From Enterobacteria phage mEp390, in sequence record NC_019721.1: DNA of 40,029 nucleotides; one strand, written 5' to 3'. Every line of letters begins with the position of its first letter. The stretch's first letter is position 1. Position numbers and translations under genes: made by a program. Below are positions 21,664 to 39,305 of the stretch, in pieces. The notes below the pieces were generated by a model. The model did no database searches. It was given only the letters and a program-made list of their open reading frames with translations, and had not been told where the DNA came from.

Positions 21664-22674
21664 TTACTGCCCCCCAACCACCGGTACTACAGATATTTTG
21701 CGGTTGTATCTTGCAGTCTGCGAAGCATTTTTGTGGCCTGATATTTCTTGTTTCTCATGCAGCGTACCTTCCAAATCAGATATCCCTTTGGCTTTCAGGT
21801 CATGGAAAGTAAAGTCAAATTCGATCTCAGGGAATTTCTCAGCGGCTAACTTTTTCGCCTTCATCCACTGCGCATTAAAAGCATCTCGTGTATATCTCGA
21901 TCCTGATGGCTGGTGAATAACATACATGCTAACCATTCCTTCTTTGAGAGGTAAGGAATCAGCCAAGGAGATTGCACGCCTTAAGCGATCGGTCCATTTT
22001 TTGATTTGACTCACTGCTGTCTTACTTTGCTGAATCATGATTCCTTCATGAAGAAGCTGCGTTTTTTTTAGATCAAGAATATCCCCCTGTCTAGCGCAGC
22101 ATAGATAGGCAACCTCCATAGCGATTTTTACAGGAATAGTTGCAATACTGTACAGAGCATCATATTCGTTATCAAAAACGTAACGAGTCCTGGCCTTTTC
22201 TTTAAACTGCTTTACCCCTTGGCAAGGGTTCATCTTCACTTTTCCACGCTCATATGCCCACCTGAATACCCTCGACATAAACGCTTTTTCTCGGTTCGCC
22301 TGAACTCTGCTCTTAACCCCCCTCTTATCCATATACTTTCTGATGTGCTCCGGCTTAATGTTTTCTGGTTTCATTTTGCCGAAAACGACATTTACCTTTG
22401 AACCATATTTCCGGTAATCCTTTCTGGTTTCTGTTGCCAGATCATGAAAGTCACCAGAGTTAAAAAACTCTTCGCAAAGAGCATGAAAGTTGGAACCAAC
22501 CTTTATATCGTTGATGAAGTTTTCATACGCTGCCCAGACCTGAGACTTTGTGAGATCGAGGTTGCACAATCTCACAGTTCTCCCGTCTGGCGTTCTGAAC
22601 TCATAAGCAGATTTGCCTCGACGCACGCGGGGCGGCATCCAGTTATCTTCTGGGTTTTTGCGGATTCTGGGCAT
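21664..22674 (-). CDS. int: tyrosine-type site-specific integrase
   Basis: 336-aa ORF with C-terminal HxxR and RY catalytic-region motifs (HDLKAKG, ARYNRK); adjacent to att core. Confidence 0.88.
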   Translation of the reverse strand: MPRIRKNPEDNWMPPRVRRGKSAYEFRTPDGRTVRLCNLDLTKSQVWAAYENFINDIKVGSNFHALCEEFFNSGDFHDLATETRKDYRKYGSKVNVVFGKMKPENIKPEHIRKYMDKRGVKSRVQANREKAFMSRVFRWAYERGKVKMNPCQGVKQFKEKARTRYVFDNEYDALYSIATIPVKIAMEVAYLCCARQGDILDLKKTQLLHEGIMIQQSKTAVSQIKKWTDRLRRAISLADSLPLKEGMVSMYVIHQPSGSRYTRDAFNAQWMKAKKLAAEKFPEIEFDFTFHDLKAKGISDLEGTLHEKQEISGHKNASQTARYNRKISVVPVVGGQ

Positions 22675-31972: not shown

Positions 31973-32958
31973 GAGCCATACTGACACCTGAAGTTGCGCC
32001 AATGTCCGGGGTGGTGCTGTTCCGGCCAGGAAATGAGTTGCTGTGGTTGTTTCGTCGCGGCCGGGTGGTTATTGAAACGCCATCTGAAGCTATTCAGCAT
32101 CTGCCATCTGGGCTGATTCCTGAAGCTCACCAGCCACTGACAGATGATGACAGCATGCAGGAACTTTTACTGAACGATCGGGTTATTCTGCGTGCTGGTG
32201 GGCTTAGCAGTCTTGATGCCTGGCTGGAAAGAAAATTCGAATGTCAGTGGCCCCACAATGAATGGCACTCAAAGGACTTTACGGTGATGCGTCACGCACC
32301 CGGAAGCATTCGTCTTTGTTGGGGATGTGATAACCAATTACGTGAACAAACCACTGAAAGACTGGCAGGAATTGCCATGCAGAACCTGTTAAAATGGCTG
32401 CTCGAACGGGTGAATATTATGCTGGGCTTTAGTGCAGACCACACCCTGACGTTACCGGAGTTCTGCTGGTGGATGGTACGTAACGATCTGGCCGACCTTA
32501 TTCCTGAATCAGTGGCCAGTAAAGCCCTCAGGATTAAGCCTGAATCGCACAGCCCAGTAATGCGAGAAAGCGACATTGTTCCGTCATTACCGGCAACTGA
32601 AATCCTCCAGGAGAAAGTTAAGAAGATAGTCTCGGTGAAGGTCGATCCTGAATCACAGGAATCTTTCATGCTGAGGCCAAAGCGTCGCCGCTGGGAGAAC
32701 GATAAGTACACCCGCTGGGTTAAGTCGCAGAAGTGCAGTTGCTGCAATAACCCGGCAGACGATCCCCACCACCTGATAGGCCACGGGCAGGGTGGAATGG
32801 GTACCAAAGCGCACGACCTGTTTGTGATACCGCTGTGCAGAGCGCATCACGATGAGTTGCACGCTGATCCTGTGGCATTTGAAGCGAAGCACGGCGACCA
32901 GTTAACGCTGTTGTTTCGGTTTTTAGATCGTGCGCTGGCAATTGGCGTATTAGCATGA
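31969..32958 (+). CDS. DUF968-like protein with C-terminal Cys/His HNH-like motif
   Basis: 329-aa ORF; C-terminus CSCCNNPADDPHHLIGHGQGG...CRAHHDELH. Confidence 0.55.
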   Translation: MRAILTPEVAPMSGVVLFRPGNELLWLFRRGRVVIETPSEAIQHLPSGLIPEAHQPLTDDDSMQELLLNDRVILRAGGLSSLDAWLERKFECQWPHNEWHSKDFTVMRHAPGSIRLCWGCDNQLREQTTERLAGIAMQNLLKWLLERVNIMLGFSADHTLTLPEFCWWMVRNDLADLIPESVASKALRIKPESHSPVMRESDIVPSLPATEILQEKVKKIVSVKVDPESQESFMLRPKRRRWENDKYTRWVKSQKCSCCNNPADDPHHLIGHGQGGMGTKAHDLFVIPLCRAHHDELHADPVAFEAKHGDQLTLLFRFLDRALAIGVLA

Positions 32959-33338
32959 AAAGTGGAGAAAACATGCGTGATATTCAGATGGTTTTAGAGC
33001 GCTGGGGTGGATGGGCCGCGAGTGATAGTTCCGGAGTCGATTACTCATCAATAGCCGCTGGTTTCAAAGGACTTCTTCCCCCGACAAGCAAATCCCGCCC
33101 GTCATGTACTGATGACGATGCCCTAATTATCGAGGGGTGTTTAGCTCGACTTCAAAAACGCAAGCCCTATGAACATTCGCTTTTGGTTGCACACTATCTC
33201 TATGGCATATCGAAGAGGAAAATAGCGAAAGCACGTAAGAAGGATGAGAAGATAATTAGAATAGAGATACAGATGGCCGAAGGCTTTATCGATGGATGTC
33301 TTTCCATGCTTGACGTTTGTTTAGAAATGGATTGTTAA
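32955..33338 (+). CDS. late-gene antiterminator Q-like protein
   Basis: 127-aa ORF in Q position before the lysis cassette; N-terminus MRDIQMVLERWGGWAA resembles Q-family antiterminators as recalled. Confidence 0.6.
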   Translation: MKSGENMRDIQMVLERWGGWAASDSSGVDYSSIAAGFKGLLPPTSKSRPSCTDDDALIIEGCLARLQKRKPYEHSLLVAHYLYGISKRKIAKARKKDEKIIRIEIQMAEGFIDGCLSMLDVCLEMDC

Positions 33339-33399: not shown

Positions 33400-34218
33400 T
33401 TATTCAGGGCTTGGGAAAGCGTTTGGTGGCATAAATTGTTGGAGGGCATATCTTATTTGAAGTCTAATGTAGTCCTCTGGAAAATCAGATCGATCTAAAG
33501 ATGATATAATTTCTTCTTCGTTAAATATGCCTGCCTTAATCATTTCATTTATCTTTGTCTTCATGCGCATTAAAATGTCTGTTCTGTTTATCTGGCGCGG
33601 GTATCGGATATTCGCGGAAATTTCACGAGAGTTGCTTTCTAACTCTCTAACTTGATGGGCTAAAATGCGTGTGTTGTTTAAAATTTCAGCCAACATGTCT
33701 TTATCAGTGCGAGCTGGAACGACCTCGTTAGGTTGATTATTGCTGAGGGCTCTACTAAATCCTTCTTCAAATTGAGGCCAGTAAGTTTCAAAAGCCTTTG
33801 CCAGGATATCATCAGGTAATTTACTTTCATCAAGTAATGAATTAATTGTTTTGAGGAGTTTAAAAACGCTATCTTTATTTTGAGTTGTATGGTTGAACTG
33901 AGAAAGTGGTGCTTCTAGGTCTTCAGGTTTTAAATCAATCAAAAATGTACACACTCTATTATCAGGAAGCCCTTTTGTTAGTGCTCCCGTTTCGAAAAGA
34001 ATCCACGGTTTATTTTTGTTTTCTTGAGTCAAGAAAACTACGCCTATTGAGACGTCCTTTAAAATTTCATTAATTTCGGAGAACCAGATTGCACCACGGT
34101 CAATATCTTTAGTTGAAATCCAAGGTTGTGCTGCTTGAATTACGCACTTCAACCATCCATTAAATTCTTCAGCAACAGCTTGGCTACGGTTTCCAGACCA
34201 ACTTAAGAATATTTTCAC
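33400..34218 (-). CDS. TIR-like domain protein with C-terminal helical domain of unknown function
   Basis: 272-aa ORF, GTG start with AAAGAGGT RBS; N-terminus KIFLSWSG...DIDRG..W....I.E.L....VVFLT...W.LFETGAL fits TIR beta-alpha pattern; markedly AT-rich. Confidence 0.55.
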   Translation of the reverse strand: MKIFLSWSGNRSQAVAEEFNGWLKCVIQAAQPWISTKDIDRGAIWFSEINEILKDVSIGVVFLTQENKNKPWILFETGALTKGLPDNRVCTFLIDLKPEDLEAPLSQFNHTTQNKDSVFKLLKTINSLLDESKLPDDILAKAFETYWPQFEEGFSRALSNNQPNEVVPARTDKDMLAEILNNTRILAHQVRELESNSREISANIRYPRQINRTDILMRMKTKINEMIKAGIFNEEEIISSLDRSDFPEDYIRLQIRYALQQFMPPNAFPSPE

Positions 34219-34857: not shown

Positions 34858-35125
34858 TCCGAGTGCGATGGTGAACGCCGTTATTTGCGGCGTAATCGTC
34901 CTTGTCCTGATGTTCTACCAGCGAGGTGGGGCGAGACATCGCCCACTGATCTCGCTGATGGCTTATTTCACGGTTCTGGTATACGCCAGCGTTCCTTTCC
35001 GTTATCTGTTCGGCCTGTACCATGAATCGCACTGGTTTGTGGTGCTGGTGAACGTCCTGATATGCGCTGCCGTTCTCTGGGCTCGGGGAAACGTGGCGCG
35101 TCTGGTTGATGCACTGAGGCACTAA
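34844..35125 (+). CDS. holin-like membrane protein
   Basis: 93-aa product from ATG after GGAGGAGG RBS; two to three hydrophobic segments. Confidence 0.5.
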
Positions 35126-35751
35126 TGAACCAATCACAATTTCAAAAGGCGGCTGGGCTAAGCGCCGAGTTAGCTGCGCGCTGGTTTCAGCCAGTCACCG
35201 ATGCGATGAAAGAATTCGGCATTACCAAGCCGGTAGACCAGGCCATGTTCATTGCGCAGGTTGGGCATGAATCAGCTGGCTTCACTCTCCTGGTGGAGAG
35301 CTTCAATTACCGGATTGCCGCACTAGTTAACTTCATTCGTGCAGGACGCCTTACCGCAGAACAGGCAAACGCGTTAGGCCGCCGCCCTGAAGAACGGACA
35401 TTACCGATTGAGCGCCAGCGAGCCATTGCGAACCTGGTATACAGCAAACGCATGGGTAACAACGCACCCGGCGACGGCTGGTTATACCGTGGGCGTGGGC
35501 TTATCCAGATTACCGGCCTCAACAACTACCGTGATTGTGGAAACGGCCTGAAAGTTGATCTGGTTAAGCAACCTCAGTTGCTCGCTGAAGACGTATACGC
35601 GGCAAGAAGTGCGGCATGGTTCTTTGTCACTAAGGGCTGCCTTAATCATTCTGGCGACCTGATGCGCGTGACGAAGATTATCAACGGCGGAACGAACGGA
35701 CTGGAAGATCGTCGCGCTCGCTTCGGTCAGGCCAAAACAGTACTGGTATGA
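35125..35751 (+). CDS. endolysin, GH19 chitinase-like lysozyme
   Basis: 208-aa ORF with GH19-like motifs ([20 protein letters not shown]) following holin genes. Confidence 0.8.
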
Positions 35752-36204: not shown

Positions 36205-36402
36205 ATGACTGTAGTTCTCACAGCTAAGCAAATCGAAGACCTGGCTAATTTCGCGAAAGAAGACGGCGCACCTCAATACACTATCACCACTGGCACCATC
36301 CCGGAGTTCGAAGCCGATGATGGCGAGATTATCCCTGAATACACAGGGTTGATCGCGTACTCAGATTCGCTGGAGCATGGTGTGTTGCAACTCGACGACT
36401 AG
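36205..36402 (+). CDS. hypothetical small acidic protein
   Basis: 65-aa ORF with GAGGAAAGAG RBS. Confidence 0.4.
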   Translation: MTVVLTAKQIEDLANFAKEDGAPQYTITTGTIPEFEADDGEIIPEYTGLIAYSDSLEHGVLQLDD

Positions 36403-36584
36403 CCATTACAGCAGGCATTCACTGAGTGCCTGTGATAATGTCGAAACACATTAATCAGGTGCGCGAGATGTCGGGTAATACCGATCCGGACGAAGCGTGA
36501 CGCTGCTATAAGCTGGAGGATGGTGCAGACGGCCAATATCTTCTGGCTCAAGGGTTCGAATCCCTTCCTGATTACCACATTAAG

Positions 36585-36611
36585 CCACTGGCATCCGCTG
36601 GTGGTTTTTTT
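36585..36611 (+). terminator. intrinsic terminator
   Basis: 7-bp stem (two G-U pairs) CCACTGG/CTGGTGG followed by T7. Confidence 0.45.
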
Positions 36612-36723
36612 ATGCGCATCGCACGCGCACAACTAAGAAAGTCTTTCAGCTGTGAGCCTGGGCAAACCGTTAACTTTCGGCGGCTTTGCCGTGCGACAGG
36701 CTCACGCCTAAAAGGAAAATTAA

Positions 36724-38221: not shown

Positions 38222-38734
38222 ATGGCCGCAAGAAAGACGATTGAAGAGAGATTTTGGATAAAGGTTGATAAAAAAGGTGAAGATGATTGTTGGTGCTGGT
38301 GTGCCGCAACAGTGAAGGGCGGTAGCGGAGAAAGAAAGTTAACTTATGGGGTTATTGGTACAGATCGAAATGCCTCTGGTAACCCAAAGGTTCTTTTAGC
38401 CCACCGGGTTTCTTGGGAAATGCATAATGGGCCAATACCGGAAGGTAAGTATATAGACCATATCTGTCACAACACCTTATGTGTGAACCCACATCACCTC
38501 CGACTTGTATCACCAAAGCAAAACGCAGAGAACCAATGTGTTGTTGATTCCCGCTCAACATCTGGATATCGAGGCGTATCGTGGAATAAACAAAAAAATA
38601 AATGGCTTGCTTACTGCAATCATGAAGGAAAGCGTTATCACGCTGGGTTCCATGAAACAGCAGAGTTGGCAGCTGAAGCTGCACGTCGAGCCCGAAACAA
38701 GGTGTTTACCCATAATGATGCAGACAGATTTTAA
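38222..38734 (+). CDS. HNH homing endonuclease with AP2-type DNA-binding domain
   Basis: 170-aa ORF; HNH-like Cys/His region (HICHNTLCVNPHHL) and AP2-like GYRGVSWNKQKNKWLAY...GFHETAELAAEA. Confidence 0.75.
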   Translation: MAARKTIEERFWIKVDKKGEDDCWCWCAATVKGGSGERKLTYGVIGTDRNASGNPKVLLAHRVSWEMHNGPIPEGKYIDHICHNTLCVNPHHLRLVSPKQNAENQCVVDSRSTSGYRGVSWNKQKNKWLAYCNHEGKRYHAGFHETAELAAEAARRARNKVFTHNDADRF

Positions 38735-39305
38735 GTTTGTTGTGGTTGGCCATCACTCTCGCTTAAGCCATGCGCAACGTCTTGCCGCGTTGCTGGATGC
38801 TCATCTGCTTATTGATGACGGTGACCACGGCGCGAACTGGAATCATCGGCGCGCTATCGAGTGGGCAGTTGAGCAGCCTTGCCGTGTAGTGGTATTGGAG
38901 GACGACGCGCTGCCAGTACATGGATTCACCGAAAAGGTAACTGACTGGCTGGCTCGTTTCCCTGACGACATGCTGAGCTTTTATCTCGGCACCGGCCGAC
39001 CACCGCAGTATCAGAAAGAGATAGCCGACTGGCTGATTGTTGCAGATAAGTCACGAGCAGACTTCATCACACTTCAGAGGCTGATACACGGGGTCTGCTA
39101 CAGCATCCCACCTCAGCACCTGAACCGTGTTCTGTCTCGATGGCACAGCAGCAAGCCTGCTGATTATGCCGTTGGTGATGCCTATGGCGGCGCTGTGGTT
39201 TATCCGTGTTACTCGCTGGTGGATCACGCCGACATGCAGACGGTTGAGCGTCATCCTGACAACGAGCCGAGGACAGAACGCCGCCGCGCATGGAGACTGG
39301 CATGA
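38715..39305 (+). CDS. putative GT-A fold glycosyltransferase-like protein (GT25-like)
   Basis: start at ATG (MMQTDFK); pattern FVVVGHHSR...DDGDHG...RVVVLEDDALPVHGF resembles GT25/GT-A cores; weak assignment. Confidence 0.4.
   Translation: MMQTDFKFVVVGHHSRLSHAQRLAALLDAHLLIDDGDHGANWNHRRAIEWAVEQPCRVVVLEDDALPVHGFTEKVTDWLARFPDDMLSFYLGTGRPPQYQKEIADWLIVADKSRADFITLQRLIHGVCYSIPPQHLNRVLSRWHSSKPADYAVGDAYGGAVVYPCYSLVDHADMQTVERHPDNEPRTERRRAWRLA

Follow-up and report, generated by a model that had tools for sequence, protein, structure and literature searches.

The window, i.e., the whole 40,029-nt stretch of DNA analyzed here, is the complete genome of the temperate, HK97-like (Hendrixvirinae-type) phage mEp390. 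Its left end carries the terminase, portal, protease, and capsid genes, which were assigned by position and synteny, and an integrase gene lies on the minus strand at 21664-22674, 14 kb from the RNA element described below. Morons are extra phage genes with their own promoter and terminator, and a gene encoding a TIR_2-domain protein on the minus strand (33400-34218), situated between the Q antiterminator (32955-33338) and the holin genes and opposite to them in orientation, is probably a defense moron. The lysis cassette comprises a GH19 endolysin (35125-35751), the sole cassette gene assigned by a domain test, together with predicted holins and predicted Rz and Rz1. A 65-aa ORF (36205-36402) follows the cassette and directly precedes the RNA element. 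On the 3' side of the element, glycosyltransferase-like and HNH genes extend up to the terminase end, so that the slot of the element is the interval between the lysis genes and the packaging (terminase) genes. Among these downstream genes, an HNH_3 and AP2 homing-endonuclease-like ORF (38222-38734) overlaps the start of a 266-aa ORF (38505-39305) that has no Pfam match and occupies the place at which a "glucosyltransferase" is annotated in related phages; the former may be a homing-endonuclease insertion into a glycosyltransferase module.

A conserved, structured leader was also observed at 36612-36723, upstream of a 485-aa glycosyltransferase-like gene, and again at L061:2703-2820 and L062:2531-2662. 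It combines a small hairpin in ATGCGCATCGCACGCGCA with a long-range stem, GTGAGCCTG...CAGGCTCAC, formed around inner helices. Two of its pairs are compensatory among three phages, and no family in Rfam corresponds to it.

Architecture of the tRNA-shaped RNA gene

A complete, tRNA-shaped RNA gene of 125 nt, devoid of an anticodon arm, was found on the plus strand at 36453-36577 (RNA positions given below are genomic coordinates minus 36452). The initial annotation had recognized the two ends of this element, namely the heptamer AATCAGG and, well downstream of it, a T arm followed by an acceptor 3' strand, a discriminator, and CCA, and all of these are indeed present. The 5' strand of the acceptor stem, AAUCAGG (36453-36459; RNA 1-7), pairs over 7 bp with positions 115-121, the 3' strand CCUGAUU (36567-36573), and 98.8% of the alignment cells of this stem are paired. 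The T arm, AAGGG-UUCGAAU-CCCUU, occupies 36550-36566 (stem 98-102:110-114; 100% of cells paired), and its 5-bp stem and the acceptor stem stack into a 12-bp minihelix. The discriminator, RNA A122 (36574), is the equivalent of A73 and is followed by an encoded CCA at 36575-36577. This 3' end reads ACCA in most variants and GCCA, ACCU, ACUA, or AACC in others.

On the 5' side, U8 and G9 lead into an expanded D arm (36460-36497) whose loop contains an extra hairpin. The D stem pairs 36462-36464 with 36495-36497 (RNA 10-12:43-45), which corresponds to the canonical 10-12:23-25 register, with G13.A42 adjoining, and the arm also contains A14, G15, and A41. The hairpin inserted into the D loop is 16 nt long and pairs 36470-36474 with 36481-36485 (RNA 18-22:29-33) around the loop GUAAUA, while an invariant GG at 36488-36489 (RNA G36 G37) is the equivalent of tRNA G18G19. 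The 5' side of the anticodon arm is replaced by a 13-nt linker, UGACGCUGCUAUA (36498-36510; RNA 46-58), with mostly invariant columns. Next comes a long hairpin of ~14 bp (36511-36548; RNA 59-96; 97% of cells paired), which abuts the T arm and consists of an 11-bp lower stem (59-69:86-96), a 3-bp upper stem (70-72:80-82), and the 7-nt loop GCAGACG. C97 (36549) is the equivalent of position 48 and the partner of G15. The nucleotides of the tRNA core are therefore reproduced in the form of U8-A14, the G15-C48 Levitt pair, G18G19 with the T loop, G53-C61, and a 3-bp D stem with G13.A22, and in an alignment of 23 distinct variants these columns are invariant or nearly so. Among unpaired segments, the linker and the loop of the long hairpin are the most conserved in sequence.

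Two small ORFs were considered, a 39-aa frame that begins at an internal ATG and a 77-aa frame on the minus strand. However, 1-nt indels occur in the commonest variant (L001) and in L074, a 6-nt deletion occurs in L082, and the internal ATG is missing from 5 of the 23 distinct variants. Given these indels and the loss of the ATG, neither strand can hold a conserved ORF.

Homologs, conservation, and covariation

BLAST searches of 50,697 phage records did not find the RNA itself, and their matches were confined to the 40 nt upstream and the terminator. Among E. coli complete genomes, the element was rare, being present in 4 of 5426, with two copies intact and two bearing a deletion, and an intact copy was found on a circular 38-kb replicon of Enterobacter cloacae. 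More copies were obtained by exact-pattern scans, based on conserved internal segments, of IMG/VR, JGI/ENA metagenomes, and GTDB genomes; pattern matches with other spacer lengths, which were mostly random and in unrelated bacteria, were discarded. In total, 23 distinct full-length sequences were recovered, and these were used to build both an alignment (A3) and a covariance model. Applied to the collected loci (enterobacterial prophage and viral contigs), the model detected 48 intact copies at ≥110 bits. The window copy, the only one in the window, scored 159.9 bits, deletion variants scored 75-79 bits, one copy disrupted by an insertion sequence (IS) was also found, and genuine tRNA-Met was picked up weakly, at 25 bits. 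In each of the 36 loci with usable flanks, the element lay between endolysin/spanin and terminase genes, and this slot was the same across at least three lambdoid backbones (P22-like, lambda-like, and HK97-like) with differing flanking genes. No protein gene was a constant neighbor of the element across the 36 loci, and no annotation lay under the RNA match in the three annotated homologous loci that were inspected.

The helices were assessed by counting pairs in alignment A3. Standard pairs filled 97.4% of cells, as compared with 93.4% in shuffled alignments, and changes on both sides were seen at 12 pairs, as compared with 3.8 ± 1.2 in shuffles; no covariation measure was as high as observed in any of the 500 shuffles. 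When the 3' partners were displaced by 1-3 columns, only 32-42% of cells could still pair. Pair 100:112 of the T stem is U-A in 17 variants and G-C in six (the window copy being one of the six), and pair 11:44 of the D stem occurs as G-C, as U-A (L076), and as A-U (deletion type). Double changes affect pairs 19:32 and 21:30 of the D-loop hairpin, and 7 of the 14 pairs of the long hairpin have changed on both sides. The 105 nt between the acceptor strands hold a D stem, a D-loop hairpin, and a long hairpin that all display compensatory changes, which supports and extends the tRNA-like structured RNA that the initial annotation had offered as one of two readings. The acceptor stem is conserved in sequence and shows no compensatory change among the variants, so the acceptor helix is argued from conservation and context only. 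Two of the search patterns had fixed one acceptor strand; a scan that fixed neither strand yielded only U3.G70 (L089 type) and the mismatched, apparently decaying L093, and mismatches in the 5' acceptor strand also came from a different pattern scan (L065 and L071). Since the family is narrow, with a mean column identity of 94%, the covariation stems from a modest number of independent events. We are confident that the RNA exists and has the shape described.

Thermodynamic folding of 36453-36577 was a check put forward in the initial annotation, and the two acceptor segments did pair. Whether the 125-nt RNA or the predicted primary transcript was folded, the acceptor strands were paired in both the minimum free energy (MFE) and the centroid structure, and the T arm and long hairpin were present as well. 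With z = -1.0 and -2.2, the folding energy is unremarkable and says little by itself; the case against chance rests on conservation. In the window copy, the fold supported by covariation is 4.8 kcal/mol less stable than the MFE, and across variants the gap ranges from ~4 to 24 kcal/mol. The final structure is a hand model, checked by pair counts, that replaced the output of RNAalifold: the latter lost the T arm and the long hairpin when the alignment included the 15-nt-deletion variants, and the D-stem register that it proposed (11:46, 13:44) is contradicted by L076. A short variable arm of the class-II type (80-83:93-96) was rejected, being broken in L041 and in most variants. A pseudoknot between the linker and the hairpin loop (49-54:73-79; loop 36525-36531) is tentatively possible, with a geometry that looks strained; it is accompanied by one double change, in L074, which also gains a local hairpin, and four variants cannot form its pair 50:78 (alignment columns 50:79).

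The second reading of the initial annotation, a relic of tRNA-targeted recombination, was not supported. In a fuller version, the locus would be a 3' tRNA fragment left behind by integrase-mediated recombination or an att-type site, e.g., a satellite decoy attB, with no RNA function. The T arm, acceptor 3' strand, and CCA do look exactly like an att-duplicated tRNA segment, and truncated or decaying copies exist (L002 type, L084, and L093). However, conservation covers the whole body of the element, with the 5' acceptor strand, the D arm, and the extra hairpins included, and compensatory changes are present, which is more than a mere 3' tRNA fragment would retain. An att site would consist of the 3' part of a tRNA only, beside an integrase gene and duplicated at the other end of the prophage, and this arrangement was not found. 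The integrase gene of mEp390 is 14 kb away, so the element is not the phage attP, and no adjacent integrase was seen in the annotated or ORF-scanned loci that were inspected. The slot is shared by the different backbones. Moreover, the truncation of L084, the only disrupted copy examined, is due to an IS3-family insertion and not to an integrase-bearing element. We consider a relic or att-type site highly improbable.

Several of the incomplete or unusual copies deserve separate description. A variant with a 15-nt deletion is widespread (L002:4048-4160, L007, L017-L019, L021, L024, L037, and L040) and lacks the 3' strand of the long hairpin and the 5' strand of the T stem. It has no terminator, an 81-aa ORF stands directly 3' of it, and a -10-like sequence, TGTTGTAAT, is kept; possibly, this variant is a decayed copy that now serves as a leader or promoter. 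Its persistence shows that some phages can do without the intact fold. At L084:10085-11400, the RNA gene is broken at approximately position 83 by an IS3-family insertion sequence with orfA and orfB. A single 92-kb IMG/VR contig carries two RNA copies of the L015 type (L067 and L077), ~57 kb apart, which suggests tandem or neighboring prophages; copies of this type have the 3' end AACC and a weak terminator. In a lambdoid prophage, four genuine tRNA genes (Met, Lys, Thr, and Gly; L017:4022-4331) lie ~2.5 kb upstream of a deletion-type element.

Upstream box, transcription signals, and proposed maturation

Upstream of the RNA gene, the plus strand carries a "box" (36401-36441) that consists of CCATTACAG, the hairpin CAGGCA-TTCACTGAG-TGCCTG, and TGTGATAATG. 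On its own, this 40-nt sequence matches phi80, Pectobacterium ZF40, many Klebsiella prophages, and 164 E. coli genomes, and near-identical copies stand at L094:1801-1837 (phi80), in L003, and at L062:1830-1870 and 1915-1960. The cargo that follows the box differs by phage (e.g., ECP1 and phi80), and in the related phages SaltyDalty and ECP1 the same slot holds protein-coding cargo. The box has the appearance of a promoter or recombination junction that morons share. The M3 RNA of phi80 was considered as a relative of the mEp390 RNA and rejected: phi80 shares the upstream box only, and other DNA follows the box there. In L081 and L088, the box stands 3' of the RNA, where the terminator would be.

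A predicted extended -10 element, TGTGATAAT (36431-36439, plus strand), which the initial annotation did not include, ends 13 nt upstream of A1. In 17 of 29 distinct configurations of the locus, the distance from the end of TGnGATAAT to A1 is exactly 13 nt, and in one more it is 10 nt; the motif is kept even where the upstream hairpin differs (L066 and L075). No -35 hexamer was recognizable at the RNA gene, and a two-hexamer promoter scan found nothing. From the position of the -10 element, we infer that transcription starts near 36446, so that the extended -10 promoter would initiate ~7 nt upstream of the RNA and the predicted 5' leader (36446-36452; ~7 nt) would end in U(-1). A T is present at position -1 in 27 of the 29 configurations. 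The terminator that the initial annotation had placed after the element was confirmed: a 4-nt trailer and an intrinsic terminator occupy 36578-36611 on the plus strand, with the stem at 36582-36607 and a T run that extends to 36611, and the T run recurs at the same offset in 20 of the 29 configurations. The locus thus has the makeup of a moron, i.e., an intrinsic terminator and a conserved extended -10, the latter recognized from sequence only, located between the genes of an operon and variable among relatives. In a few copies (L072, L081, and L088), one or both of these signals are missing and coding sequence adjoins the RNA directly; therefore, co-transcription with the late operon must also occur. 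During late infection of mEp390, the element would probably be read through from the Q-dependent late transcript.

These copies bear on the possibility that the element is solely a cis-acting processing signal ("tRNA punctuation") in the Q-antiterminated late mRNA, with the excised RNA a by-product. RNase P cuts some polycistronic mRNAs, and a site for RNase P and 3' processing at this point would part the mRNA of the lysis genes from that of the packaging and head genes. Such a role would fit the constant position at the lysis/terminase boundary, the presence of the minimal RNase P features, and the three copies just mentioned, which stand next to coding sequence with neither the box promoter nor a terminator. 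However, a minihelix would suffice for it, yet the D arm, the inserted hairpin, the long hairpin, the linker, and the loop are all conserved or covarying, and most copies have their own -10 at a fixed distance and their own terminator. This explanation appears unlikely to us.

Instead, we propose, with moderate confidence, that 36431-36611 is a self-contained, moron-type gene whose product is a stable non-coding RNA. This RNA would be processed by RNase P at its 5' end and by trimming at its 3' end, and it would be a non-decoding tRNA mimic. In this proposal, RNase P would remove the short leader. Maturation by RNase P is probable in view of the recognition features seen, namely U-1, the 12-bp acceptor/T minihelix, the T loop, and RCCA. 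Transcription would stop at the intrinsic terminator, and the trailer would be trimmed to the encoded CCA to give an L-shaped RNA of 125 nt.

Relation to known RNAs and possible roles

With default settings, ARAGORN reported no tRNA and no tmRNA in the window, and no family of Rfam 15 matched the RNA element at its gathering score. A permissive Rfam scan, of the kind that the initial annotation had put forward as a check, was positive for part of the element: the T arm alone matched RF00005 (positions 46-63) with 13.8 bits, as compared with a gathering score of 29. A match to a whole tRNA was not obtained, and the scan otherwise returned unrelated weak matches only (E ≤ 10). Indeed, the features of canonical tRNA (RF00005) are divided in this molecule. 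It shares with tRNA the 7-bp acceptor stem, U8, the D-stem register, A14, G15-C48, the GG of the D loop, the 5-bp T stem with G53-C61, the UUCGAAU loop, A73, and an encoded CCA followed by a terminator, so that the acceptor/T minihelix, T loop, D-stem register, and tertiary-pair nucleotides are all in place. In contrast to tRNA, it is 125 nt long, has a 16-nt hairpin in the D loop, and has the 13-nt linker and ~14-bp hairpin in place of an anticodon arm. A complete cloverleaf, with a 5-bp anticodon stem and a 7-nt loop containing U33, was not found, and the covarying helices leave no room for an anticodon arm.

The same helices weigh against a decoding tRNA interrupted by an intron or insertion. 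When introns are allowed (-i), ARAGORN offers a tRNA-Arg(CCG) with a 30-nt intron, in a model that spans exactly 36453-36577. However, the proposed anticodon stem takes its nucleotides from the covarying D-loop hairpin and long hairpin, the D arm of the model is poor, and the default ARAGORN search and Rfam reject it. To our knowledge, no bacterial mechanism splices such a 30-nt intron. Models obtained from ARAGORN with introns or lower thresholds are forced ones that conflict with the covarying helices, and a decoding tRNA of this kind is barely credible here.

The tRNA-like domain of tmRNA shares with the phage RNA an acceptor stem, a T arm, CCA, a long helix in place of the anticodon stem, and a possible pseudoknot. 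On the other hand, the phage RNA is far smaller and has a real D stem, its 3:70 pair is U-A rather than G3:U70, and it has no conserved ORF that could be a tag reading frame, whereas a tmRNA combines G3:U70 with a tag ORF, a resume codon, and multiple pseudoknots; ARAGORN was also negative for tmRNA both at its default threshold and at 70% of it. tmRNA is an established substrate of RNase P (PMC11143913), whereas this status is predicted for the phage RNA. The hallmarks of YrlA and bacterial Y RNAs, i.e., a Ro-binding terminal stem joined to a tRNA-like module and linkage to rsr, were not found; neither rsr nor rtcB lies near the RNA element, and Rfam gave no YrlA match at E ≤ 10. YrlA is a Y-RNA-like, tRNA-mimicking bacterial ncRNA that also occurs in phages; it does not decode, its T- and D-arm mimicry reproduces the tRNA elbow, and its ends pair in a stem that binds Ro (Rsr), not in an acceptor stem with CCA. 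The phage RNA is likewise non-decoding and likewise reproduces the elbow, but its termini form an acceptor stem with CCA and its neighbors are lysis and terminase genes.

The nearest conceptual relatives are the tRNA-like molecules of T-even phages, which are also phage-encoded, longer than tRNA, and tRNA-like at their termini. They include the stable "species 1 and 2" RNAs of T4, which are encoded in the tRNA gene cluster and processed with the tRNA machinery and have no known function. A catalog of such T-even molecules is cited in PMC11143913 (ref. 48). BLAST of phage records gave no T-even match to the mEp390 RNA, and there is no detectable sequence similarity; the two also differ in setting, i.e., a temperate lambdoid phage and a lysis/terminase moron slot as opposed to a virulent myovirus and a tRNA cluster. 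Small phage RNAs matured by host RNase P are known from phi80 (M3), P4 (CI), and P1/P7 (C4) (PMC5499578, PMC11143913). These are hairpin-like and have no equivalent of the T loop (PMC5499578), whereas the mEp390 RNA carries a complete T arm together with a tRNA core. Full-text literature searches turned up no account of it. The mEp390 RNA belongs to a known kind of molecule, the tRNA-like non-coding RNAs, but is not one of the families that Rfam 15 or default ARAGORN recognizes; annotation by tRNA finders and Rfam overlooks tRNA-shaped genes of this class in the moron slots of prophages.

Since the RNA has no anticodon arm, it cannot decode, and it would instead act in trans as a tRNA mimic. 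A trans-acting role, as mimic or decoy, is favored because far more is conserved than a processing minihelix, and we put it forward as a tentative hypothesis. Its partner, which it would either occupy or be modified by, would be a protein that recognizes the tRNA elbow and acceptor end; candidates are a synthetase, EF-Tu, a CCA-end enzyme, and a tRNA-directed toxin or defense nuclease. The conserved linker and hairpin loop would confer specificity.

The conservation of these same two unpaired segments would also suit a base-pairing regulatory sRNA that uses the linker (GACGCUGCUAUAAG) or the loop GCAGACG as its seed and the tRNA-like body as a scaffold for stability and processing, and prophage morons often encode sRNAs (cf. 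the Pas sRNA preprint). However, complements of the linker and loop occur in the 40-kb phage genome at chance level, and the retained tertiary-interaction nucleotides (U8, A14, G15/C48, the GG, and the T loop) exceed what a scaffold needs. An sRNA of this type is, in our opinion, improbable.

As for what a mimic acting in trans might do, phage-host conflict directed at tRNA is a current theme, with anticodon nucleases, CCA-end modifiers, and phage-borne replacement tRNAs among its elements. A molecule that keeps the L-shape and the acceptor end of tRNA and has lost the anticodon arm is a natural candidate for a decoy or effector in such conflict. One specific version is that the RNA is an anticodon-less tRNA decoy, aminoacylatable or reactive at its CCA end, that defeats tRNA-directed immunity or gives it to the lysogen; we regard this as a long shot. 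If it were true, a temperate phage would possess an RNA purpose-built against tRNA-directed immunity or would supply such immunity to its lysogen. With its intact tRNA core and A73, the RNA could be a substrate of a synthetase that does not depend on the anticodon, LeuRS being the obvious candidate, as a minimal tRNA-Leu without anticodon and variable arms is still charged by LeuRS. A second possibility is a high-affinity bait, whose targets could be enzymes or toxins acting on the tRNA elbow and acceptor end, such as toxic small alarmone synthetases (toxSAS/CapRel), the MenT/AbiEii nucleotidyltransferases, CdiA-type tRNases, and EF-Tu-dependent effectors. The RNA is short and its lambdoid phages of E. 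coli and Enterobacter are genetically tractable, which makes the hypothesis directly testable.

Outside the assigned helices, the tetranucleotide GACG occurs three times in the RNA, i.e., in the D loop (36489-36492), in the linker (36499-36502), and in the loop of the long hairpin (36528-36531). All three occurrences are highly conserved and may represent a repeated protein-binding motif.
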